From NCBI RefSeq assembly GCF_018977255.1, contig NW_024704742.1, positions 135,844,001 to 135,908,000 of the forward strand: a stretch of 64,000 nucleotides of DNA, given 5' to 3'. The number at the start of each line of letters is the position of its first letter. Position 1 is the stretch's first letter. Below, in pieces: positions 1 through 60,747 of this stretch. The DNA is from Callorhinchus milii (lineage: Eukaryota). The position numbers and the translations under genes are program-made. The notes under the pieces were generated by a model that ran no database searches, was not told the origin of the DNA, and worked only from the letters and a program-made list of their open reading frames with translations.

Positions 1-1264
1 TGGCAGCCAGTTTGCACACAGTGAATAACCAATTTTATTTGGGGGATTATTGGCCAGCCCGGGAGACAGAAACTCCTTTCTCTTTTCGAATAGTGCCGTG
101 AGATTTTTAACGTCCAAACAGACGGGACTTTGGTGTAACGTCTCATCCAAAGCACGGCATCTCTGACAATGCAACACACCCCAGCTCTGTGTGAGAGTGT
201 CAGCTTAGACTATGTGACTCTAGGTCCTGGGCTTGAACCCACAATCTTCTGACTCAGAGTGAGAGTGTTACCACTGAGACAGTCTGATACGTCAATACCT
301 CTGCGACCCAAGTCTCCATCTGTTTCTATTGTAAACATCCCAATTGATCCCACCACTACAACTCTCTATGTGAAGAAATGCTTCCTCATCTCAATCATAA
401 TAGTTATTATTATTTATTATTATAGACTCACGTGGTTCTGATTCTGTGCCCTTGACCAGAGGAAGTGGAGTCCACTGTCCAACTGAGACTTGAAGGTCAG
501 AAAGGCCTCTCCCCAAAGTTTCAAATCCTACGAAACCTTAGGCAAGTTTCCTTACTCCACACACATCTGTTTACCTAGCAGTGACTAGGAACGCCAGTGA
601 TAGTCGATTGTCGGATCGTTTTCCGGGGATAATAATTCACATGAAAAGCGGTGACCAATTTGCACTCAGCTACGTTCCTGCAAAACAGCCATGGAGTGAG
701 TGACTTATTGATCTTTCACTTTCGCCTGTCTGTCTATCTGTCTGTCCGTCCATCCGTCCCCATCCGTACGTCCATCTGTCTCTATCCCCAGCTTTGCATC
801 AGGCCACTGTTAAGCTCTCCGAGACGCTGCCCAGCATAAAAGGCGCAATATAAATGCACGTTGTCGTTCTCTCTCCCTTTGTCTTGCTGTCTCTGTCTCT
901 AATCATATTGTGTGTATTTCTGCATTCATCGGCTGTAATTACCTTGTATCAATCCCACTTCCCTCCGTCTGCCAGTTCAGGGAATTCAAGTGAAGCGAAC
1001 CTTCCCCTCCACCTCAGGAGGCATGGCTTTGGCAGGTCGAGCTTGTTCCCTGAGATAGCTGTGAGCAGTGCCCCCAGTCACAATCATACACTTTACACTC
1101 CAGCTGCACAGCTCAGCTTTACAGTTCCTGTGGAGTTCGGTAGCTCAGTGGTTAGAGCGCTCGAGAGGAGCCGAGAGTGAACTGTGAACTTTCCTTTTAA
1201 CATTGATTTAAAAGCCTCTCAAGTCTCTCTTCGAGCCATCTTCTCTGAGTGCTATGCGGTTTTT

Positions 1265-1486
1265 AGCTGGTTAGACTCCAGCAGTTACCCCAGTGCAGAC
1301 TCTGGGGTCCTCCAAGCCTTGGCTCTTGCCAACCTGCGCCTAATACTCTCCGGAATTAGATAAACAGAATGCGTCCCTCCAGGGAGAGAGAGAAAGAGTG
1401 CATTCCATTCCAACAATCTCTCTCTTGGTTTGGATACTCTTAAGCACAGTGATGGGTTTCCGCCTGTGTCAGACACCCGGCTGACC
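1265..1486 (+). repeat. Unclassified structured interspersed repeat (copy 1 of 6)
   Basis: agctggttagactcc...ccaagccttggctcttgccaacc...gtgtcagacacccggctgacc followed by an A tract. Confidence 0.85.
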
Positions 1487-2577
1487 GAAAAAAACCGGGC
1501 CAGCCTTGCTCAGTAGCTCACGCTCTCGATGCTGGGTCAGCAGGTTGTGGGATCCCCCCATGTTGGGACTTTAAATTCACACAGTCCAGGCTTACGTTCC
1601 ATTACAGTAGTACTGGGGTGGGAGTGGGGAGAGCCACTAGATTGTCAGAGTTGACGCCTTCTGATGCGACGTTAAACCTCTCTCCGCCTGTTCAGGTGGA
1701 CTTTAATGATGCCACTATTTCAAAATAGAAGCGCGTTTCTCCCCTTGTTCTGGTCGACAACGTACCAGACAAAAATTTAATTAAACAAATAATAATTTGG
1801 TCACTCAATCTACGGCAATTGGTGGGAAACTGCCGGACGCAATTGTTACAGTGTTATACCCACAAAATACACAGTCAATTCACTTTACAGTCAAATCCTG
1901 TGATATGAAAATGCTATTAATCTTATGTTTCTCCCACAAAATATACATGTCAATCCATTTTACCACAATGTGATAAGGCGCTATAACAAATGCAAGGATT
2001 ATTATTATAATAATAATAGACTAATCCGTGCATTTGATATAGCATCTTATCATGTCTTTGAGATGTCTCTAAGCGCTTCACAGTATATTACTGTAAAGCG
2101 AATTGACCGTATATTTTGTGGGCAAACACGGCAGCCAATTGCCCACATCCGTGTCCCACAAACAGTCATGGATTGAGTGACCAATTTATTATAATTATTA
2201 TAACCTCCTCTGTGCCACTCCTTTCTTCTCGCTCCCCCCAGATTCCTCTCTCACTCTCACCTTTCTTCGAGACCCAATTCATTTCCCGTGTCGCTGAGTG
2301 GAACAACAATGCAGTCTTACTGAAATGCATATTGACTCGCGGCAATAATCTGGAGACGAATCTGTCAGCTGTTGTGCTGTAAAGAGCAGTAGAAAGTGCC
2401 TGGCAGATCAATGCAAGGCAATGCCACCAGTCATGGAGCACTTAATCTCTGTCTATACACTGACTGATTCCCTTAATTACGGTTTTTATAAGCGTTGCTT
2501 CCAGTTAAGGCTGGGCAAGCATTCCACCTCAGGACGCAACCCTTCCTCCACCTCAGCTCAGCCTCAGTCCCTGTTGG

Positions 2578-6568: not shown

Positions 6569-9500
6569 TGTACAGTGCTCTCGGTAGAACACACCTGGAT
6601 TACTGCGTCCAGCTCGAATCAGGTCACGCCTGATTAAAAGAAACTTAACCAACCTGTGCGTGAAAATATCTCTCCCAATCTCTCTATTTATTACCTATTT
6701 TAAATTGAGGCCCTCTAGTCACTGACTCACTTACCAGTGGGTATAATGTCTCCCTATTGACTCTATCCAAACTCCTTATCATTTTGAATGTGGAACTCAC
6801 AGTTTGGTTTGGATATCACGGTGATGTGTTTCCGAGTGTGTGTGGCTCAGCTCCTGAACCATCGAGGCATTCACAGAGGCTTGACTCATGTCACCTTGGC
6901 GCCTGTTCTGGCCTGTTTCTGTACTTATACATTTTTAATAGATCTTTGTAGGATGTCTCCAAGCGCTTCACCGGATTTACTGTAAAGTGCAGTCACTACT
7001 TATTTGTATCCAAACAAAGCAGCTGCACAAAGCAACGTCTCACACTCTGCCAAGGAGCGAGTGACCAATTTTATTTGGGGAATTGTCGGCCAGAAAACTC
7101 CCTTCTCTTTTCCAACAGCGCCTACAAAGATCTACAGAGAACGTATATTACTGATTTTTTTTACGTCCACATGAACAGACATAAACGGGACTGCGGTTTA
7201 ACGTCTCAATTGAAGGACAGCGTCTCGGACAACGCCACACACCCCCATCGCTGCATTGGACTGTGATTTCGAAGTCCTGACGTGGGAGCTTGAACCCACG
7301 ATTTTCTGACTCTGAAGTGAGAGTGCTACCGACTGAGCCAGGCTGACACGCATGTTAAATGTCAAATGTCCCGCAGACCAAGACTGGGCGGAATTCGAGG
7401 CTGTGATATGGCCCTCCCTTCCCCCCTCCCCACCCAGCGTGTTGTTGGCCTTTGTGTCTGATTGTGGGCTGGTTGCTGGAGTCTGTATATGGGTCTGATC
7501 ATTGCCAAGCTGCATTTTGCTCCGCAAATTAATTGCAGGCAATGAACAACAGCACTCAAGTGGAAAATCAGTGATGAAACCAACAATTACAGACACCGTT
7601 TCCCCAGCACTTGGCTTATCCTTACCCAAGACTCCACACCACACGAGATGCGTCATCAACCACAACCACCACGACAACAAATTGCATTTACACGCCGGTT
7701 TTGACAGCGGGAAGACATCCCAAAGCGCTTGTCAACGAGGGGTTTGCACCCCAGCTGCGGGATGCGATCAGAGAAGGTTGGAGGGCAAAGTGGTGGGGGA
7801 AAGGGAAGATCACGGTTCAAAAGGAAAGGTCTTGAGATGGGCATTTCGCCTGCACCCTTCACATACGATCACGTCTCAATATGTTACCTCTTTGCCCGTG
7901 CTTTCGGCCATCTTTCCTTCTTCCCAGCAAGCCTGCCGACCACTATACCGCGGCTTTCACGGGTTTCCGTACATGTGCCAGATACCTGGCTGAACCCCCC
8001 CACCCACCCAAAAGAATAAAATTTGCCTCTAAATTTAAGGTGGGGGGAGAATGGGAGAAATTTCAGCTTTAATTTGGGAAGCTGTTTTCTTTTTCTAAAA
8101 GAAACTCCGAAAGAAAAACAGGTTCCGAACTGAGGCCGGGAATAGGAATTGTCCACTTAAATGTGAAGTTTCCGATCGAATGGTTCCGGCCTCCTGTTTG
8201 TCCCTCATACCCTCCGTGCCACCGTCGGTAGCTGAGCTTTCGGCCAATATACCACGAAACTCTGGAACTCCCTCCCTCCGACTTGCCCCTTCCCCGTCTT
8301 CAGATCGCTTCGAAAGACCTTCCTCTTCGACCGCACCTACGGTCACCTCCCCCTCGTGTCATGCTCCGTCACTGTCAAGAGTGGCGCCATATAAGTGCAA
8401 ATGGTTGTTGTTGTTGTTGTTGTTGAAGACATATGGTGTCAGAGGCTCAGCCTAGGATGTGAGCGTTGTGAGTACTTATTTATTATTGCAGAAATACAGC
8501 AAAAAATCAATGGGGAGAAGATTAATTCCCATTAGCTTGTGCGTGGATTCATATACACAGTGAGGCTGATGTAAGCTAAGTGTTGTGGTTATAATAATAA
8601 TAATAATAATAATCCTTTCATTTGACTTAGCGCTTTATCACATCGTTGCGTTCCAACGTCTCAAAGCGCTTCACAGAATATATTGTAAAGTGGATGTATT
8701 TAGGTATTGTTTTGGAGGGATTATTCCCCCGGATCCACTAATCGACTAACAACGAGGGTTCTACTTACTGTTAGGTAAAAAGAGGCTATTAATCTGCCTG
8801 CCCACTGCGCTCTCTGGCTTCCTCTGAGATTGGTCGGGCAATTGCTCAGCTCAGGCTGTTTATTAACCCCATTGCTTAATGGTCTCATTTTTCCTCGGTC
8901 TGTACTCAGCCAGTGAACACTGAGAGACTTTGCCCCATCAGTCAACATCGCTGCCAGCCTGACCCTGAGAGAGGAATTCAAAGAACTTTAACATGTAATT
9001 GTACCTCTCCGGCTTGGCTATTCAAAATCCAATTTCTTTTTAAAATACATTACTTTTCATTTCAACCCAGCTTAGCTGGCGTCTATCTGCAGATGAAACC
9101 GAGACTTATTTTTTGATTGGAACTTTAGATAGAGTATAAATAAGATCTTCTGATACTTAAACCTGCACTACCCTAGGGAAAGCCCATCAGCTCATGCCTG
9201 CTTCAATCCTAAACCCCCCCACCCAACCCCCCTTCCCCCCATCACACCCGGACCTGTAGCGTATTGGTTAGAGAACTCGCCTCCCAGCGGGGCAAAACCT
9301 TAGGAAGGTTTCCTTACTCCACATGCCTCTGTTTACTTAGCAGCAGTAAGTAGGAACTGGGTTGACTATATGACTGTACGGGGTAATAACACATCAGCCC
9401 ATAAAATGAAATCACTCAGTCCATGACTGTTTGTGGGACACTGCTGTGCACAATTGGCTGCCGCACTTCACCCACAAAGTATACAGTCAATTCACTTTAC

Positions 9501-17600: not shown

Positions 17601-19130
17601 GCGCCTCGGTTTACCCAGCAGTGAGTAGGAACCCGGTTGACAGTCAACTAGCGGATTGCTTTCTGGGGGTAATAATCCCTCCAAAAAAAAATCAGGACAA
17701 TTACCAGGACAATCCCCTTCATTTTACAACATGGGATTTTGAAGCCGGTTTCTTTTAAGTTTCTTACAGGAAACCCACAGGTTGTCCCGCAGTTTGCGAA
17801 CAGAAACCTTCTCCCAAATTAAATTTGAATTGAAAATGTTTCCATCACTAACGATAACAACTCTTGCATTCGATATAATGCTTTATCACCTTATTGAGCC
17901 GTCTCAATGCGCTTCACATAATATACTGTAAAGTGGATTGACTGTGTATTTTATGGGCGAACAGCGGCCAATCGCACACAGTGTCCCACACTGTCCCACA
18001 AACAGTGTGGATTGAGTGACCACATTTTTTTTTGAAGGGGTTATTACCCCCAGAAAGTGATCCGTCAATCCACTAACAACCAGGTTGCTAATTACTGCTG
18101 GGATTTGGGCGCTCTCTCTCTCCCTGGAGGGACACATCCTGCTTACCTAATTCTGGAAAATATTAGGTGAAGGTAGGCAAGAGCCAAGGCTTGGGGACCC
18201 CAAAGTATGTGTTTGGGGGTAACTGTTGGAGTCTAACCAGCTTAGAGACCCAGTTGATGAGTTGGTGAGGAGTGTCAAGGATGGAGGTGACAAGAGCACG
18301 GAGTAGTGCTTTGGCAGTGTTTGCTGTGAGACAGGATATGGGGAGAGGGAGCGCGAGAGAGAGGATTATTAACCGGCCAAAGATCCAATAACTATTCATT
18401 CAGAGGAGAAGTGGCGCTTGCAAGAGTCTGTTAATTTAGTCCGGGGCAGTGAAGTGAGTCAGAACTCATTACCTTCTGAAAATACTGAAGACATTGCGCC
18501 ATAAAGATCTGAATTCACAGAATAGGTCTGCTTGTAAGTTATAAATCTGACATTAAATTACCTGGGGTTAGTGTAGCAGCCAGATCAGTAGGACGTAGCT
18601 GGCTAGACTGAGAGCTGGCCAGGACTATTGACAGCTGATCCCCATTCAGATTTATTATCATATTTTATATTCCAGACAGAGAGAGAGAGACCCAGAGCCA
18701 GCTTCACATTCAGGGCTTGGAGACTGAAGGTGCACGGAGCGTGTGTGTGAATATCATGCTGCATTCTCCCACCTGCTTAGTCCCCAGCCCACTACCTGCT
18801 GCCTCCACTCGACTGGCTCTGGCCTCCTGCTTGTCGCTCGTGCCCTCCGTTGCAAGATAGGTGGCCACACTTTCAGCCATTACGCCCTGAAACTCTGGAA
18901 CACTCTTCCTCTATCCCTCCGGTTTTCCCATTCCTTCCCCAGCTTCAGGTCGCGCCTGAAGACATCCCGTTACCCTGCATGAGGGGCTCTGCAAGTTGGT
19001 GGTGTTGGTGTTGCTCCTGAGCCTTGCCACAACAGGCTGATGCTCTCTATCTGTCTGTGTGTCTCTCTGATACTGTCTGTCTGTCTGCTTGGCTGACTCT
19101 GCATGTTTCAATCTGTCTGCATGTCTTATG

Positions 19131-19560
19131 TGTCAGCCTTGCGCAGTGGGTAGCGCTCTCGCCTCTTGAGTCAGAAAGTTGTGGATTCAAGCCCCACGTC
19201 GGAACTTGGGATCACATAGTCTAAGCTGACACTCCAGTGCAGTGCCGGGGGCTGTTGCATTGTCGGAGGTGCCCTCTTTTGGATGAGACGATAAGTTCCC
19301 GTCTGCCTGTTCAGGTGGTTGCTAGACATCCCACGGCGCTATTCGAAAAGAGGAGGGAGTTTCTCTTTCCCGGTGTCCTGGCCAACAATCCCCCAAATAA
19401 AATGAATGCCTCACTGTTTATGGTACGTTCCTGTGCGCAAATGTGCTGCCACATTTCACCCACAAATACAGTTAGTCAATCCTCTTTACAGTAAAGTGCT
19501 GTGAGAAGTTGTGACGATGTGGTAAGGCGCTATATCAAAGTACAAGGATTATTATTATTA
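19131..19560 (+). mobile_element. tRNA-derived SINE, family B (SacSINE1/Deu-SINE-like), full length
   Basis: Head tgtcagcctt...cagtgggtagcgctctcgcctc...gagtcagaa; body gctgacactccagtgcag...ggaggtgcc...caggtgg; Deu-like block; same tail as family A. Confidence 0.85.
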
Positions 19561-20400
19561 TCCATTACAGCCTTGGCGAGCAGGGTTACAAGGAGCTGAG
19601 TGGGGAGATTCTCTGCTACTATTTTTAGGAAGTAAAACGGTAGATTGATAAAAAATTAATAACCTTTTCATTTGATACAGCTCCTTATCACGGCATTAAG
19701 CCATCTCAAAGCGCTTTGTGGGATTCACCGTGAAGTGTGGCAATGGTGCATTTTGTAGGCGGATAGTAATGGGAAAATTCCTTCTGATCTCTCTGACCCC
19801 CTCCCTCCCGATTTCTCTGCTGACAATCCTGAGACTGTAGCCACCACTCCCTCCACCATCATTCATTCTAGGTTGTGAGGAAGGTATCTGATAATAATAA
19901 TAATAATCCCTGCATATAGTACCTTATCATGTCGTCGAGATGTCTCAAAGCGCTTCACAGAATTGATTGTAAAGTAGATTGACTGTGTATTTTGTGATCT
20001 CAGGCTCTGTGCGTTATTTTGTTGGTGCTTCTCTTGCAGCTGTGGCCTTTCCAGAATAGAATGATGTCCTATTCGTTGTGTATCCTTAATCAGATAATTG
20101 TAGTGTTTCAGAGGTCACTGCACCCATTAAACCTCTCCCTCCGCATTTCACTCACGTCCCAGTTTATGGACATCGACTGAATAATAAAACACACTGAAAA
20201 GCCGCTTGACATCTTAATGCACTGAAATTGGTAGAACAGCCACTTCACTTCACAGTAGGTTCTTGTGAAGCAGTTGGGGACGTCCTTCTGATGTGAAAGG
20301 TGCTATCTTAATGTACATTCGTATTGCATTTGTGTATTGCAATGTAACCAGAGGACATGGGTTTAGAATTGCAAAGGGCAATTTTAGGACAGACACCAGG

Positions 20401-21270: not shown

Positions 21271-22220
21271 TATCAAACAAAAATGCACCATCGGAATAAC
21301 ATTTCTATAAAAAACGAACATCTGACTGTTCTACAGTGCATTACAAAACCCCCTTTTGTTCATTTCCTCTCATGTGTACGTTTTATAACCAGGTAGAAGG
21401 AAGCCCCTTCCCGGGGACACACTAGATACCGTGGTTTCTAAGCTAAATTTTGGTTAACATTGCCTATATTTCAACATGGGAGGGGATTGGGGGAGGAGGG
21501 AGGGGGAGAGGGAGTGGGTGGGAGGGGAATTAAGTCCGTGAGCTCCGCTAGAAAACCTTCCTGTTTAACACCCCCTCCCACCCAGAAAATAAATAGAAAC
21601 ACCTCCAGAGATGAATTGCCCACCCACCTCTGCGGTCTTCTTCTCTGTCTTCCCCCCCCCCAGCCCCCATCCCCAGCCCCCAGCCCCCATCAGGTACGTC
21701 CACACTCTCGTCATAAATTATCGCAATTAGCCTAATAAATAAAATATTAATTATTAAAAAAAGTACACTTCCCGCCCACCCGCCCACCATCCCCAAACCC
21801 CTCCCCCCAACACATCACCCCCATCACCGAGTGGGCAATCCAATCCGAAAGGAATTAATTGCCCGCATCCATTTTACACTAAAAGTGGCACTGTTCTTGC
21901 TATGTGGTTACGAGTCTTCAAAATATGCCCCGCCCCTCCCCAAAATGTACAGTACTGTATATAGTGATAGGTTCATGCCCGATTGAGATACATTTGTCAT
22001 TAACGTGTGCGGAGGGACAGTTGTCAGTGAGAGACACACAGCTCTGGTCTGCAATGGGGTAGTGAGCAAACCATAATGCGCTCCCAGAAAAGCGGTGTGA
22101 TAGGCTTTCACCTGGAAGGAGATTCCACAGATTGGGACACAGCAAAGTTGACCAGGACATCTTTCTTGGAACCTAACTGAAAACCACAAAGCGCTGACCT
22201 CAGTGCTATTTTTCAGGTGA

Positions 22221-22452
22221 TTTTTTTTTGGTCAGCCGGGTGTCTGACACTCGCGGAAACCCATCACCGTGCGTAAGAGTCTCCAAACCCAACTGAGAAT
22301 TCCATGCATCCCACTTACACATGGAAATCTCAGAGATAGATTATTGGAATGGAATGTGCTCTCGCTCCCTGGAGGGACACCTGCTGCTTAGCTAATTCCA
22401 GGATGTATTAGGTGCGGGTTGACAAGAGCCAAGGCTTGGGGAGACCCCAGTG
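22221..22452 (-). repeat. Unclassified structured interspersed repeat (copy with A9 tail)
   Basis: Reverse complement of the 1265-1486 family; includes the long hairpin missing from copy 1. Confidence 0.85.
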
Positions 22453-23379
22453 TGGGTGTGAGTGAACCACACTAACATGTGTTGCATCTCTTCTGAGCAG
22501 GATTGGGGGGAGTGGGGGGGGCACGTGGGAGAGGTCACCCCTTGCTTCCCTCCACCCCCCCATCCCGACTAGGGAATGGACATCAAGAAGTTCCAGTGAC
22601 AGGAGTCACCACTGTTAACTTTCCTGAATTCCTTTCTGTTGGGCAATAACTGCTGTAATTCCACCCATTATTGGAAGAAATGTTTTGAGAGTTGAGTTGC
22701 CTAATGAGCATTGGCTTCTACAGTGCTCTGAGCACTTTATCCAACATAATTGATTCTCAGGGTGAGTGTGTAGTGGAGGGACATAAATATAACATAGCCA
22801 CAAGCTAATCTCAAAGAAAGTTTAACAGGAACCTCTTCACACAGAGGGTGAGAATGTGGAACTCACTGCCGGAAGCTATGATTAAATCAAAGAGCATCAA
22901 AATATTTAAAGAAAGCTTAGTTGAGGGAGAGGGGAATAGGAGGGGGGAATAGGAGGGGTGGGGCCTTGGACTAGCTGGGCCAAATAGTCTGTTGCAGTGC
23001 TGTACAGTCAGTGTATCATTAGAAATGAAATTCGACAATGACCCTATAAAGAAATGAGTGGCCAAATTATTTGTGTATTCTGGTGAGGAGATGGGGGAGG
23101 GGAGCGGGTGGGTGGCTATAAGTCAGGACAGTTGGAGTTGAGGTTAGATCAGCCATGATCTAATAGAATGGCGGAACATGCTCGAGGGGCTGAATGGCCT
23201 ACTCCTGTTTCTATGTTGCTGTATATAAAATGGGGGGAAAAGACTCCACAAATTAGCGGCCAACGGTTGACAATCCTTGGAGCTGAATCACAAGCAAATA
23301 GATCGCAAAATTAATGAGTCAGAGAATTGGCTCTGGAAATAAATAATAAGCCTGTCCGTGGTTCACAATGTTATACAAC

Positions 23380-24420: not shown

Positions 24421-26516
24421 CAAATGCACTCGTTCCCAGTCATACAGATATCAGGCTCTGGTATCATGTGTTACTGAATACATTAGTGAGTGGTGAGAGT
24501 GGCTCAGCCACTTCATCTATGATTGCCCCCCCTACCCCCCTCAAATAGCCAGGACGGGGCAGTGAGCCTGTCAGTCAATGACACAGACTATAGAACTCCG
24601 TCAATTAACAAAATCAAGAGGATTATTTCAAATAAAACCTGGACGGTAGATTGCTTATGTCTGCAATGCTGTTGGATATTCAGACTGCAAGACAAATTCT
24701 CAAGCTGAACAAGCCCTTCAGATAACCACAGGTTGTTGAACACACACCACGATGAACGGAGAGACTTTCCTCTATTTATTGTAAAGTGGAGCAACTTTGT
24801 GAATGCAGCAGCCAATTTGCACACAGCAATGTCCCCAAAACAGCCATGAAGCGAACAATCAATTTTATTTGGAGGGGTGGGGGGGGTGGATTGTTTGCTA
24901 GGACATCGGGAGCGAGAAATCCCTTCTCATTTTTTTACTAAACAAAATCCACCCGAACAGGCAGACGACATTGGTTTAACGGCTCAGTGTTTGGGGCAAA
25001 GTCGGGTAATTGGAATTGAGGCACGGATCGACCATTGATCTAATTGAATGATGGAATAGGCTCGAGGGGCTGAACGGCCTACTCCTGTACTTATGTTCCT
25101 CATCCGAAGGACGGCACTTCCAACAATGTAGTGGTGCTCAAAGAGGTAGGTTTTATAGTGGGTCTAGAGACAGAATGGGGGTGTGGACAAGGAGTTGGAG
25201 GGGTAGAGGGAGGGAGCTCCAGAAGTTAAGTGGAACAGCTCAGAGTTCAACATATCTGACTCGTCTCATCCTTCACCCGCTGAGCCTCACTGGCTCCATA
25301 AAGTGATTTTAATGCCTTTTAATTCAATTAAACGCAAACAAAGTTGGGATGTAATAATGAGCGATTATTAGAGTGATTATGTGCGTAAGGCAGCGATCTC
25401 AAATTGCTTGCCATGTGTTCAGCCTCCCCCTCTCCCCACCTCAGGCCATTAGTCATCCATTCCTCTCAATTAACAAGCCAATTATTTGAGTGTTAATCAT
25501 TTGAGCAACTTATCGGAGAGATTCAATTCTTCCCTGACGTTTCTGTGGCTTAAAGCCAGACTCTATTGTGGATTTTACATTAGGAAGATAGCAACCTAGG
25601 AACAAGAGTAGATCATTCAGCCTCCTGAGCCTGTTCCACCATTCTATTAGATCAGGGCTGATCTGTACCTCAACTCCAATGACTTGCCTTTGCTCCATAT
25701 CCCTGGATTTCCTAACAGTAACATGCTTTTATACAGCTCCCTTTGTGATTATCCACCTCAGTCTTGAAAATGTGAATGGATCCACCATCCACAGCCTTTT
25801 GGGGGAAAGAGCCTTGGGACGTCCTCCTGACCTGAAAGGCGTTATACAAATATAATTTGCTGTTGTTGTTGAGAGTTCCAGATTTCCACTACCGTTTGGG
25901 TGAAAAACTGCCTCCTGATTTCACTCTAATTGCCCCCTTGTTCTGGGTTTTCTCACCAGAGGAAACAGTTAATCTATAGCTACTCTATCAAATCCCTTTA
26001 TTATTTTCAACACCTCAATCAGATCACCCCTCAACCCTTGCGACCACTTTACACTGGGGATCAGCTGTAAGACAGGAAGGCCCCCGGCTTAAACTGAGGT
26101 GCAGTTACACTCCCAGTTTACCCCCTTGGCTGACCGTCTGACTCCGTATCTGCACTGACCTCGGTTACAGGGACTCTGAATGACACTCACACATCCCATT
26201 ATAACACAGGATCTCAATTTATGCCCCCACAATTGCCTCATTATAAGGCAATCGGACTATATTCTGCAGCCATCAAAGTATAGTTTTGTTTTGGTTAACA
26301 TATTGACACCCAAAAACCCATCACCATGCTTGAAAATATCCAAGCCAGACAGAGTTCCGTGCATGTCATCCATTGGGGTAACTGCGGATGTTAACTAGCT
26401 AGAACCTCACCATTTGCAATTGAGAGCATTGTTAGGGCTTTGGTTCTCAGGGTTAACAGGAGCCGAGTGGGTAGAATCCCCAGGCCCCGGAGAAAATTCA
26501 ACACATTAAATGATAA

Positions 26517-26614
26517 TTATCACATGGACAGAAACCTGCGGTTAAAGGCTGTGCTTAACATCGGGTTATCACATGGACAGAAATCTGCGGTTAAAGGCTG
26601 TGCTTAACATCGGG
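26517..26614. repeat. 49-bp tandem duplication
   Basis: Two units of ttatcacatggacagaaaYctgcggttaaaggctgtgcttaacatcggg with one mismatch. Confidence 0.97.
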
Positions 26615-29384: not shown

Positions 29385-29474
29385 TTAGAAAGCGGAGCCT
29401 GTGATGGCATTTAGTTGCTTCATGAGACCCTCCAGACTGGCCATTTGCTCACTTAGGTCATCCTGTTCGTACAC
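29385..29474 (-). CDS. DCC: DCC terminal coding exon (exon 29 equivalent), P3 motif and stop codon
   Basis: ctgtag|GTGTAC...TTCTAA; VYEQDDLSEQMASLEGLMKQLNAITGSAF*. This C-terminus is diagnostic of DCC rather than neogenin. Confidence 0.97.
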   Translation of the reverse strand: MYEQDDLSEQMASLEGLMKQLNAITGSAF

Positions 29475-29937
29475 CTACAGGAGGGAAACGGGACAGGGTT
29501 AGGGCCGAGCCGAGGTTTCAACAACTGGGAGCAGCTGTGGGGGGAAAAGGGAAGGGAGAGGAGGACAACTGACACCCACGGAAACCTGTCACCGTGCTTA
29601 AGAGCCTCCAAACCACACCCTCCCCACCTGATCTCCCAGAGTTTGAGTGTAGGTTGGCAGGGGACAAAACTTGGGGGAATTTAACTAAGCAAACCAAGCA
29701 TTTAAGTTGCCTTGGCAAGCTTTCTGTTATTTGTTCAGATAGGAGTAAGAGCGGGGGAGTGGGATTAGTTGGTAGTTCTTTCAAAGAGCTGACACATGCA
29801 CGATGGGCGGTGAGATTGTATGACTCTAAGGTAAGCAGGAAATCCTTGGACCTGAGCTGGTTCCCAGTGTGACGTGTCTTGCTTTGCCTTGCTGGGTTTC
29901 TTTGTCACAGATATGGAACTGCTTGTATTGACCTTAC

Positions 29938-33302: not shown

Positions 33303-33815
33303 TAGTCCTCTCCCGCCCCAGACTCCGTGACCCCATCACCCCCACCCTCGCCCAGCTCCGCTGGCTCCCCATCCCCCAGAGGAGAGAATTCAAAATCTTC
33401 GTCCTCACTTTCAAGGCCCTCCACGGCCTTGCCCCCTCCTACATCTCTGACCTGCTGACCCCCTATCAACCTGTCCACTCCCTCCGCTCAGTAGGCTTTG
33501 GCCTGCTCCTTGTCTCCCGTCCGACCTGCCCTACCATCGACGGCCAGGCTTTCGGCCTCTCTAACCACACCCTTTGGAATTCCATTCCACAATCTCTTCG
33601 CCTTGATCCCTCTCTTGCCTCCCTCAAGGCAAGGCTCAAGACCCTACTTTTTGACCGTGCCTTCAGCTGCCCTTCTAACTCGTCTGCCCTCCTTCATCCC
33701 AACCCTGCCCCACACACTCAGGTCCTGATCCTTGATTGTTCAGCGCTTTGGGACGTCCTCCGGACGTGAAAGGCGCTTTACAAATGTAATTTTGTTGTTG
33801 TTGTTATTGTTGTTA
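33303..33815 (+). mobile_element. L2 LINE 3' end, relatively young, with (TTG)n tail
   Basis: PITPTLAQLRWLPIPQRREFKIFVLTFKALHGLAPSYISDLL...LWNSIP...KARLKTLLF; 3' stem-loop acgtc-ctccg-gacgt followed by ttgttgttg. Confidence 0.92.
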
Positions 33816-50729: not shown

Positions 50730-52131
50730 CTGCTGGGCAAAGCAACAAGTCAGGGCTTAGGGTCTGAGTGGGCAAGAAGGGTAGGGGGCAGAGATGGGAG
50801 GTAGGGGTTAGGGGACGCAAGGCAAGGGAGGAGGAGCTGAGGTAGGGGAGGGGTGAGGTAGGAAGGGGGTGAATAGGGTATTAGGGGAAGAGGAGGAGAG
50901 GGTAAGGTAGGGGAAGGGGTGATAGGAGGTGAGGGAGTGAGGACCATCAGGGCAGAACATCATCAAGAGAGAAATCAACCATAGTAGAACTGAGCTGAGC
51001 ATCACATTGAGAGTGAGAAATACCAAACTAATGGGAGGAGGTGGTGGGGGAGGAGAGGGGAGAGGAGAGACAGAGTGGAGAGAGGAGGAGGAGAGGAGGA
51101 AAAGAGAGAGGGAAGTGGGGGGGGGTGGGAGAGAGTGGGAGAGCTGGGATGGTTTGGGGAGTTTATTGTCATGGAGTGTGAGCCTTTTACGCACAAACAC
51201 CACTGATTGAGAGGTTCTGCTGCCCGACACCGCCCCCCACCCCACCATCATCATCAAACTGCAGTGATCAGCAAACACAAACACGTTCCTTCAGACAGCG
51301 AGGTGACAGATGCCACGTACTTTCAAAATTCTAATAACAATCAAATGATAATAAAATAATAATTTATAACGTTAAATTTACGACTGTAAAACTTTCAGTT
51401 TGTGTCCTTTAAACTTCTACCATCCTCCTCTCCTCAAAAGTTTCGCAGCTCAGAAATTCCGCCCAGTTGTACTTATTAACGAGAGGGGCAATTTGGTGTT
51501 AAGATTTAAGAAGGCGCAGAATTGCGGAAAATTCAAACCCACCTTAAATCAGGAACTGGTTTCTTTGTAAGAACGGCAGAAAAATGACGGCTTCCAAATA
51601 AAAACTGGATTGAAGACCCAATCCACAACTGTGCTAATTGGCTGCCGCGTTTCGCCCACAAAATATACCGTCACTTCACTTCACGGTACATTCTGTGAAG
51701 TGCTTTGAAACGTCTCAAAGATTTGATAAGGTGCTATAAATGCAAGGATTAATATTATTATTATTGTTGTTGTCACAATTCCTTGCTACCTTAAATTTTA
51801 TTGCAAGATAACATTTATAGGCTGAGACTAAATGATATTTGGGCATGAACCTTGACTCTTGGTTCCATTTATGTGGGGAGGAGGAATTTGTATACACTCT
51901 AACTCTCTAGCGAGGTCACTCTGGTGATCAGAGCTACCAAATTCCACCTCGCCTTATCCAGCAAGATTGCTTGGACTTAAGATTTAAGGTGACGCAAAAG
52001 TGTGGCATGTTCTTCAGCTCTGTGCCTGGTCTGCACATCACAAGCTGTCCTGTAAAGGTCCTCCACCAACCAGATACCCATTGAATAGCTGATGAGGAAA
52101 CTCTGAGGCTTGGGACAACAGCTAATGTTTT

Positions 52132-52352
52132 AGCTGGTTAAACTCTGAGGTCCCCCAAACCTTGGCTCTTGTCAGCCTGCGCCTAATTCTCGCTGGAATT
52201 AAGTAAGCAGGGTGCGTCCCTCAGGGGAGAGAGTGCCATTCAATTCATGGGGATTCTTCCATGCAAAGGTGGAACTCTGAGTCGTTTGGTTTTGATGAAT
52301 CTTAAGGACAGTGATGGGTTCCTGCGTGTGTCAGGCATCCACCCGGCTGACC
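52132..52352 (+). repeat. Unclassified structured interspersed repeat
   Basis: Same two termini as copy 1. Further copies at 18110-18242(-), 29568-29614(-) and 53174-53425(+). Confidence 0.8.
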
Positions 52353-52686
52353 AAAAATAACATCTCCACTTTACTTTGGATTTGGAAGCCTTTTTTCCCC
52401 GCAATTCTTACAAAGAAGCTTGCATCTAAATTAAGCCCAGATTGGCAAATGTTCTGCACCGTCTGAACATTTTAAGGTCAATTGATGACAGCACAGCCCA
52501 GCCTGACTTATCGGCAGGACTTGGAAGGGCAGACCAGTCCCTGTGGGCAGAGAATCCTCCAACTCAGCTCCTGTTAACCCAGCAAACCAAAGCCCTAATG
52601 GGTAAGAGGGTCCTAGCATCTTAACAAGCAGAAGGAAAGCTTGCCAGTCAGCGATATCCATGGCAAGCAATGCAGGTTTAGACTCC

Positions 52687-53172
52687 AACAACAACAACAA
52701 CAAGATTTCATTTATAGAGCGCCTTTCACGTAGGGAGGAGGTCCCAAGGCACTGGACAGTTGGGTCGGGACCCGACCAGGGGGGAAATGGTCAGGGTGAG
52801 GGGAGGAAAGGGAGGGAGCGAGGAGGGGGGAAATGGTCAGGGTGAGGGGAGGGAAGGGAGGGAGCGAGGAGGGGGTAGGGAGTCGAGTGGGGAGCTGAAG
52901 GCACGGTCAAAGAGAAAGGTCTTGAGACCGGCCTTGAAGGAGAAAAGGGAGGAGGCGGCGAAGGCACTGGGGGATGGAGTTCCAGAGCCTAGGGCCTGAG
53001 AGGCTGAAGGCCCGGCCACCGATGGTAGGGCGGTTGGGGCGGGGGATGTGGAGCAGACCGGAGCCAGAGGAACAGAGGGTATGGGCAGGTAAGTAGGGGG
53101 ATAGTAGATCGGAGAGGTAGGAGGGAGCGAGGCCGTGAATGGCCTTGTAGGTGAGGATGAGGATCTTGAATT
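52687..53172 (-). mobile_element. L2 LINE 3' end
   Basis: FKILILTYKAIHGLAPSYLSDLL...LWNSIP; caacaacaac tail at 52687. Confidence 0.9.
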
Positions 53173-53719
53173 CGACAGTTACCCCAACACACACCCTGGG
53201 GTCCCCAAGCTTTGGCTCTCGCCAACCTGCATTTAAAACTCTCTGGAATTAGGTAAGCAGTCTGTGTCCCTCCAGGGAGAGAGAGAGAGAGAGAGAGAGC
53301 ATTCCATTCCAACAATCTATCTCTGGGATTTCCATGTGTAGGTGGGATGTATTAAATTCTCAATTTGGTGTGGATACTCTTAAGCAACGGTGATGGGTTT
53401 CCACGTGTGCCTAACACTCAGTTGACTCCCCCCCTCACCCCCAACCGTCAAGACAAGTTGGCACGTCAGGCCTCAGAAGCAGGTTTTCCTTCTCCTTAAT
53501 CCTGGAGTACAATTGCACTCCCAAGTGTCATCGCCACACTCAGTGAGGGCTGGGATTCGAACCTGTGACCTTCCCCGCTATGTGATCCAGTGCTGCCTTT
53601 ACCCGTCATGTGTGTGGGATTGGGATGGAGGGGGAAAAGCTCTGGCTTCAAGTGTTGAGTGCACCTTGAACACGCTCTTCAAGTAACATGCACTCTGCAG
53701 CGATTTGTGGCTCATACTA

Positions 53720-58475: not shown

Positions 58476-59072
58476 CTGGTGCCGCAAGTAGGAGGCAGAA
58501 GATAGGGAGGAGAGTGAGCGTTAGGAGGAGAGACAGTGCCAATGTGGAGCATTGCAGAGGCTTCTAACACAGGCACCAACCACACACGCGCGCGTGCGCG
58601 TACATTTCAACCCCAGGTACAAACTCTGTCTCGTTGTATCACATCTCAGCCGAGGCCTGTCAACAGCTGCCTGTCAACAGTTATAGGTGCCAATAGGTGC
58701 CTGTCAATGGGCGTTTGCTGGAGTTTAAGCAGCTAAAACTACATAGCTTGATATTGACATTGTCTGCAAACTTTCCCGGTGCTTGTCCATCTAGGACCAC
58801 CCTTATCCGTTAGGAATATGGCTTCCAGGTTAATGGGAGTTGAGTGGGATAACTCCCTGCCCCCAGTGGTCTGCCCTTCCAGATCCTGCCGATGTGCCAG
58901 GCTGGCCGTGCTGTCATCAGCATTACCCTGGAGTAATATAGTCTGGTTCAGGAACCGGACTACATACCGTCACAATGGGTTGACTCCATTGCGATATTCT
59001 ATTGACAGTTCATCACCTTGGAACTAGTTGAACCGCAAACAGGCGCCGCTGACAAGCAATGAAAGGACTCAC

Positions 59073-59211
59073 CGGCTTCAAACGTTTTAGAATGAGCCGT
59101 CATGCTCCACGTGCTGGACCTCCGACCTTTGGTTACCATGACGGAGAACTCATACATGGTGTTGGGTTTGAGGCCGGTGACGGTATGGCTCAGGGCTGTG
59201 GTATCTGCAGA
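59073..59211 (-). CDS. DCC: DCC exon 18 equivalent, FN3-5
   Basis: ctccag|TCTGC...AGCCG|gtgagt; 139 nt; [46 protein letters not shown] (read manually, absent from the ORF track). Confidence 0.96.
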
Positions 59212-59361
59212 CTGGAGGGCAACCAGAGAAACAGAGAGAGAGAGAGAGAAAGAGAGAGAGACAGGAGATCAGGTCAGGACAACCACAACAACAGTTACGT
59301 AGCGCCCTTCAACCAGGGTAGCGTCTGAGAGGTCGGTGAGGAGACTTGAGGTCGAAGTTAC

Positions 59362-59603
59362 CTTGAACTTGGTGTTGGCAGAGTAGCTGGTCCTCCATCG
59401 CACGGTGTAAAAACGCACCTCAGACACCAACCGCTGGTTCTTGGGGGCCGAGTTGTCTGCCCAGCTGACACGGACAGAGTCGTGGCTGACCGACATGGCC
59501 TGGACACCTACAGGTGGTAGCATGGGGGTGGAGGTCTCTGGGACTGAGGTTGGGAGGTCACCAAACAAATGGAACAAATCAACATCTAAAGGGTCAACAG
59601 GGT
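59362..59603 (-). CDS. DCC: DCC exon 17 equivalent: FN4-FN5 linker plus start of FN3-5 (long form; internal alternative acceptor at 59537)
   Basis: ctcccag|ACCCT...TCAAG|gtaact; 242 nt; [81 protein letters not shown]. Confidence 0.96.
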
Positions 59604-60747
59604 CTGGGAGGCGAGACCAAAAGTCATGCATCGAATCGAGGAATGGGGAATGGGGAACAGGGGTGTGGGTGCATAGGTGGGGGGGGAGGAGGAATGTGGG
59701 GGTTTGGGGACAGAGAAACAGCGGCAATAATTGCAAACGTGGTCAGAATGTAAACAATGACGTGAAATGGTGTGAGAAGATCACGGAGGAGGGAGGGGGA
59801 AAAAAAGTGCAGATTAATTGAGTCAGGAAAAGACCGTTTGACATCGGGATAATCCCCTCTCGGAGCGGTCTTCCCATAGGGAGTAAACAGGACCGATCTG
59901 AGTAACGAGCATTGGGATAGAGCAAAACAGGATAAGGCCTCTGGGGGCCATTAGATCAAAGTTACTCTATGTCTCACACCTCAGTCCATTTCTTTGTGAT
60001 AACTATCTGATTCTCTCTTGAATTTACTGACACCATTGCCTGTTAGAGTTGTCTGTCCCACACACTCACTGCGTTCTGTAGATCTCTCCTGAGCTTGGAC
60101 TCATGTTCCCTATTGTGTGGAGCTTTTCACCAAATTAACCATATAATCAGTTTATTGCTACACTTCAGTGTCTCTATCGTTTCAACAGGATCTCTCAACT
60201 CAGATTCCCTTCACCGGTGTTAACATTGCCAAGCTCTGTAGCCTCTCCTCATATCGGGGCGGATGGGATGGAGGGAGGGGGCTGGGGAAGGAGGGAGTGT
60301 GGGGAAGGAGGGAGGGAGGTAAGGAGAGAGGCAAAGGAGGAAGAGAGATCAGGAGAAAGGGAAGGAAAGTATGAGAGAGCGAGGGACGGAGGTGTCAGGT
60401 CCGCCATTAACCGGTGTAATGTGACATTGTAAATATGAGTACTGTCCATACTGTTACACAAGCAGAATGTGGATAGGCACATTGGGGGGTGTGGGGGGAG
60501 GCAGCGGACACTAATGATCGGGGGAGAGTGGGGGTGGGGAGAGAGAGAGAGAAGTAAAAACAGGGGGAAATTTAACCAAACAGAAATAAGATACATTGAA
60601 GTGGGACGATTTTGTCACGTTTCTTAACAGATTTCTTGTTAATTAAATAATGAGTTATGTCATCCTCTGTGCTACCTGGGCAGTCTCATGTGGCAAGTGA
60701 GCCGACCAGCAAGCAGGACTCCATGTGTGGACAGAGCACAGCACTCA

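Follow-up and report, generated by a model that had tools for sequence, protein, structure and literature searches.

A hairpin-rich, A-tailed repeat at an elephant-shark locus is probably the 3′ tail of an old LINE

Introduction

The stretch of elephant-shark DNA analysed here (64,000 nucleotides, hereafter the window) holds several copies of a hairpin-rich repeat that end next to an A run, and it raises the question of what kind of element this is and where it begins. A preliminary description had read it as a SINE-like unit of about 290 nt, starting at the same AGCTGG in unrelated flanks and derived either from a structured RNA or from an unidentified retroelement. The findings presented below indicate that the repeat is real, that its boundaries had been misjudged and that its explanation is ordinary. 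It forms the A-tailed terminal portion of a longer and abundant repeat of at least 530 bp, which is most likely the 3′ UTR of an old LINE with a poly(A) tail whose copies were probably truncated at the 5′ side and later eroded. A-tailed retroposition and derivation from another retroelement agree with the data, while the structured-RNA SINE with a set 5′ end does not, since AGCTGG is internal and the starts vary.

Results

The window is dense in LINE and tRNA-SINE debris. We kept the names c1 to c6 for the six copies first described and assigned c7, c8, c9, c11 and c12 to the added pieces (Table 1); part A is the 5′ portion of c5, part B the segment upstream of AGCTGGTTA and part C the A-tailed 3′ part. 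All six original copies aligned (blastn E values from 1e-8 to 1e-53) and the actual total came to 10 insertions in 11 pieces, 4 on the plus and 6 on the minus strand, with a shared core that was 77.6-86.8% identical across five copies. Motif matches at 21448 and 21899 were inspected and not counted as copies. One insertion was split: c11 broke off at ...GACTCCA and c6 continued with the next bases beyond an unrelated insertion of 486 bp, presumably of L2 type. Since c6 resumes at the breakpoint of c11, both pieces constitute a single copy of about 460 bp.

Table 1. Copies of the repeat and associated features in the window
Feature	Position	Strand	Remarks
c1	1251..1494	+	starts 14 bases upstream of AGCTGG; without long stem; A run at end
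c8	6788..6849	+	fragment of 3′ part; found with in-window profile; blastn from c3 E 3e-5
c2	18110..18244	-	start about 2 bases upstream of AGCTGG; end in GA microsatellite
c12	19552..19622	-	fragment of part B; E 6e-8 to c11
c3	22221..22456	-	fullest 3′ part; A9 tail
Long stem-loop in c3	22293..22333	-	z -5.0, for a stretch chosen around the stem
c7	26285..26487	-	carries piece of part B and AGCT site; internally deleted twice; A run at 3′ end
c4	29565..29745	-	about 55 bp beyond AGCTGG position upstream; internal deletions; decayed 3′ end
c5, part A	51830..52123	+	decayed reading frames; left limit approximate
Possible C-terminal Cys/His knuckle remnant	51860..51900	+	motif spacing as in an excerpt of PMC5381506
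c5, part C	52124..52360	+	A run; joined to part A across internal deletion
c11	52478..52688	+	part B; first half of split copy
Later unrelated insertion	52689..53174	-	(TTG)n-tailed; 74.6% to 33386-33672; separates c11 from c6
c6	53175..53427	+	second half of split copy, from where c11 stops; without A run
c9	58701..58944	-	part B continuous through AGCT site

Several other features were observed around these copies. Exons of the netrin receptor DCC lie on the minus strand, among them an FN3 exon frame at 59272-59742 (E 3e-29 to PDB 2edd). A second FN3-like DCC exon was seen at about 59075-59210 (-), with c9 some 130 bases behind it, and a terminal exon at 29385-29474 (-), which we take to be the last one of DCC, ends in ...GSAF*, with c4 ending about 90 bases before its splice acceptor. 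A tRNA-headed SINE, presumably Deu/SacSINE1-like, occupies 1495-1760, directly behind the A run of c1. Two exact tandem duplications, at 26517-26614 (49 bases) and 52778-52875 (46 bases), with matches of 97-98%, look recent and each lies near a repeat copy.

The sequence AGCTGGTTA, present exactly at 1265(+), 18242(-) and 52132(+), had been taken for a fixed 5′ end. This boundary did not hold, because AGCTGG was internal in c4, c7, c9 and c11/c6, and c1 ran 14 bases past it. In four insertions an upstream segment was joined to AGCTGGTTA, and in c9, c11 and c7 it began as much as about 210 bp before the AGCTGG site. Over 200 columns of this segment c9 and c11 were 73.5% alike. For the extension of about 55 bp in c4, 4 and 10 of 1000 random windows scored at least as high. 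The upstream flank of c5 consists of repeated DNA, and that of c1 matches c9 for 14 bases. Relative to AGCTGG, the 5′ ends fell at about -210, -200, -85, -55, -14, -2, +35 and +190, the remaining ones being that of c5, at or beyond -92, and that of a fragment consisting of part B only. They span more than 400 bp among the 10 insertions, some of them possibly as a result of later erosion.

Continuity across AGCTGG was also found in contigs of four sequencing runs, labelled three organisms, which were compared over 52040-52740. In run X1, the summed depth of part B, which is not a copy number, was 1.2e4-1.35e5 versus about 9 on the unique flank, and it was similarly raised in the other runs. The repeat family is clearly abundant and common to contigs of the three organisms. 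Among the 15 joints listed (130 in all), 8 returned from part B into part C, and part B was bridged to 52126-52128 by another two contigs; contigs from three organisms connected the upstream segment with the “290-nt” segment and extended further 5′. Loose ends before 52483/52498 agreed at 0.65-0.71, with 55-199 contigs per row among the rows listed (24 of 1726), indicating that the element continues for at least 30 bases past the start of c11 and hence measures at least 530 bp, instead of the 290 nt or so first proposed. The repeat was likewise present in X19, a run guessed to be RNA whose contigs show neither strand nor ends. Molecule ends were not reported to accumulate anywhere, although contigs would not reveal this, and pattern scans of viral contigs, metagenome contigs and prokaryote genomes gave 0 matches.

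Part A was repeated as well over 52040-52123 (depth 322-8914 versus 9), and four contigs placed it before B or C. The link from A to B consists of two single contigs with a short side of 20 letters, sides of less than 30 letters calling for caution, and the link from A to C of two contigs with a short side of 29-30 letters. The A-to-C junction (rows 52125-52127) showed single-copy depth in X1 and appeared in one contig of X6, which argues for an old single event and not for an amplified subfamily. Separately, the c5 deletion junction (52116-52135) was seen gap-free in this X6 contig, from another organism, with 26 differences in 152 bases; c5 is probably an orthologous insertion that predates the species split.

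These data bear on the alternative that the repeat is a non-autonomous retroposon of 550-900 bp, mobilised in trans via its A tail, either as an internally deleted LINE like Bov-A or as a non-coding element like Sadhu or SVA, types described in an excerpt of PMC4494074. Its A-tailed, fixed 3′ end, the absence of coding matches, the internal deletions in c5 and c7 and the fact that c9 and c11 both start near -200 to -210 would all suit such an element. However, contig loose ends with agreeing sequence extend past this shared start and the c5 deletion junction is not amplified, so that we regard this alternative as unlikely.

A different proposal keeps the repeat within a LINE tail and gives the hairpin at AGCTGG the role of a programmed break, acting as a reverse-transcriptase stop, an internal start or a self-cleavage site and repeatedly yielding an A-tailed, SINE-like sub-element of about 290 nt without a Pol III head. 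Of the 10 insertions, only c1 and c2 have their start no more than about 15 bases from AGCTGG, which is also where the c5 deletion ends. Two starts and one deletion end among 10 are too small a count to decide on a truncation hot spot. Paired 5′ ends were also observed at two other positions of the element, 26487(-)/19622(-) and 58944(-)/52478(+), so that AGCTGG is not the only place where starts cluster. We give the proposal little credence. If 5′ ends did pile up at this hairpin genome-wide, the family would lend itself to testing whether the stops of LINE reverse transcription are set by RNA structure, and also how LINE tails give rise to SINE-like units.

At the 3′ side, CCCGGCTGACC was exact and ended at 1486(+), 22230(-) and 52352(+), where, in agreement with the preliminary description, it adjoined A runs (G followed by A7 in c1, A9 in c3 and A5-T-A2 in c5). 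Of the five copies extending to the 3′ end, four had an A run (c1, c3, c5 and c7). The 3′ end was absent from 5 of the 10 insertions, indicating that target-primed insertion alone is an insufficient explanation. No TSDs above chance were detected in six copies, each decayed by about 10%. A TSD candidate of c5 (51805-51814) was discarded as being at chance level, its score having been reached by 31 of 100 random windows. AATAAA was absent from the five copies scanned (c1, c3, c6, c9 and c11) and the GC content of the element was about 50%. Inspection by eye revealed no TIRs, TG..CA LTR ends or terminal direct repeat pairs among the in-window ends, nor anything resembling a PBS after the 3′ end.

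If the A run reflected a target-site preference or belonged to a terminal repeat, the element could instead derive from a DNA transposon, a solo LTR or a tyrosine-recombinase element (DIRS/Crypton). In line with this origin, erosion at both ends is common, as are internal deletions; in addition, the 3′ end reads ...CC(A), and AGCTGG is preceded by T-rich bases in three copies. This origin is made improbable by the T run being internal in c9, by the A run following 4 of the 5 complete 3′ ends and by the lack, to the eye, of TIRs, terminal direct repeat pairs and PBS-like sequence at the in-window ends. Helitron, Kolobok and piggyBac readings, judged by the end rules of these elements, were dropped on the internal position of the left T run. 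Missing repeats do not exclude Cryptons, because those of animals are without terminal repeats, as stated in an excerpt of PMC3212892.

The interpretation of the repeat as the tail of a LINE is also consistent with part A, whose features are suggestive of a decayed end of ORF2. In L1, ORF2 ends in CX2-3CX7-8HX4C (excerpt of PMC5381506). The three-frame translation of part A gave C-G-E-E-E at 51872 and, after a 1-nt shift, a His codon at knuckle spacing. In the knuckle candidate the first Cys reads TGG, the last one is unrecognisable and a single Cys remains intact. Matches to C[GKN].E[ED], a pattern chosen post hoc, numbered 2 among the 127,996 codon positions of the window, and one of the two lies in part A on the right strand. 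At 52082, where c5 has a stop codon, a sense codon accounted in three runs for 53-65% of the depth and in X6 for 32%; some contigs also carried an in-frame insertion of 6 nt. We also take the downstream peptide to resemble Tx1-type ORF2 ends. The frames of part A gave 0 matches in Pfam and 0 in three homolog searches, and a comparison with the PDB returned chance matches only; because all protein searches were blank, the coding reading of part A is no stronger than suggestive. A hammerhead-like CTGATGA-G-GAAA at 52090 was discarded, being without stem II and without an Rfam match.

On the opposite strand, a frame antisense to part B matched one protein, a Callorhinchus milii gene model, at 74% over 35 residues. 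This cyclophilin gene model (UniRef100_A0A4W3H8Q4) has final 35 residues that correspond to the antisense strand of the repeat, a spurious-looking exon, due to an error in the gene model or to exonisation of a copy. In addition, a stop-free frame of 119 codons (52431-52790, -) runs antisense across c11 into the adjoining insertion, and 89 of its codons had no match in Pfam.

Regarding the hairpins emphasised at the outset, the long stem was indeed present in c3 and missing from c1. It was deleted, cut or rearranged in c1, c4, c5 and c7, a loss that would fit hairpin-promoted deletion or template skipping. The short stems fared worse: ccaag/cttgg, tccct/aggga and gtgtc/gacac would enclose loops of 1-2 nt and, because such loops cannot form, they amount to 4 bp at most. 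The strand-specific gain of G-U pairs came down to 15 G-U versus 7 A-C cells, which is not significant (p=0.13), and the stem thought to close the 5′ and 3′ ends was absent from the consensus fold, a local GCTGG/CCAGC hairpin competing with it. For the in-window consensus of part C, the fold had a z of -3.2 when the A-tailed strand was used and of -1.5 for its complement, whereas single copies ranged between -2.6 and +1.0, and among 30 random windows one reached -5.4. The comparison between consensus and single-copy folds suggests that the ancestral tail was probably somewhat structured.

Covariation was equal to that of shuffled alignments, 282 of 500 being as high, in a check that had little power (36 pairs, 8 rows). 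Two-sided changes occurred in 2 of the 36 pairs, both within the poorly aligned stem of c5, and RNAalifold returned 0 pairs on the gappy 8-row alignment, an uninformative outcome. Watson-Crick pairs were kept in 113 of 142 cells (80%), about as neutral decay predicts. No Rfam family was found at the gathering threshold and nothing credible at E values up to 5, ribozymes included. As previously stated, there was no tRNA on the element; c1 contained a one-mismatch B-box-like 10-mer with no A box before it. An origin by self-cleavage or from a structured RNA has neither a ribozyme or RNA family match nor covariation in its favour. The original model of a SINE-like element of about 290 nt, derived from a structured RNA and with its 5′ end set by a promoter or self-cleavage, could appeal to the better consensus fold on the A-tailed strand, the two starts and the deletion end close to AGCTGG and the B-box-like word in c1, but it is largely refuted and now very improbable, given that AGCTGG is internal in several copies and overrun in c1, that single copies fold weakly and that Rfam, covariation and the missing A box all speak against it.

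Discussion

The analyses presented here point to the repeat being the 3′ untranslated tail of an old LINE, possibly a Tx1-like one. Reverse transcription of this LINE would have been primed at the A tail and halted early at varied points, and the resulting copies would later have been eroded by deletions and subsequent insertions. In c5, part A may correspond to the decayed end of ORF2, with the knuckle remnant and a helical stretch following it, and it would have been joined to the tail through the deletion of a few hundred bases. The hairpins may go back to the ancestral tail, with neutral decay following insertion. LINE families consist mostly of 5′-truncated pieces of 100-1000 bp (excerpt of PMC3747384).

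No paper on the family came up in literature searches on elephant-shark LINEs, and in a full-text search for four motifs of the element an 11-mer alone matched, in 7 unrelated papers. The family may already be named in Repbase, Dfam or paper supplements. As read, the significance of the repeat lies in the annotation of repeats in a cartilaginous-fish genome.

Several known systems share part of these features. Ribozyme-bearing retroelements include HDV-like ribozymes at R2 5′ ends and a ribozyme within human LINE-1 (excerpts of PMC3774820 and PMC11620745). The likeness is that a structured RNA within a non-LTR element might determine the ends of transcripts, whereas here no ribozyme model matched and AGCTGG is not a genuine end. 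Non-tRNA short retroposons such as SINEU share with the element the poly(A) tail and the lack of a Pol III promoter; SINEU, a proposed user of the Tx1 machinery, has heads that are U1/U2 snRNA (excerpt of PMC4494074), while the element described here has no Rfam match and its 5′ side runs into more repeat. The elephant-shark SINE2-1_CM, SINE2B-1_CM and SacSINE1-CM are likewise abundant interspersed retroposons of similar decay. According to an excerpt of PMC5499810, the tRNA SINEs of this species combine a tRNA head containing A/B boxes with a CORE or Deu domain and a tail of L2 type; going by this description, our element, with an A tail and no tRNA match, is set apart from them.

Among LINEs, vertebrate L1 tails end in AATAAA and have 25-35% GC outside mammals (excerpt of PMC5381506), whereas the tail found here is without AATAAA, has about 50% GC and extends over at least 530 bp with hairpins. 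The absence of AATAAA from the five copies scanned indicates that the element is not a vertebrate L1 proper. Compared with the 5′-truncated, poly(A)-tailed LINEs of the L1 clade (L1/Tx1), the element is known from in-window copies and contigs, among which no full-length form was seen, nor reverse transcriptase, endonuclease or TSDs. It resembles these LINEs in its fixed A-tailed 3′ end, in its ragged 5′ ends and in the possible remnant of a C-terminal Cys/His knuckle before the UTR (excerpt of PMC5381506).
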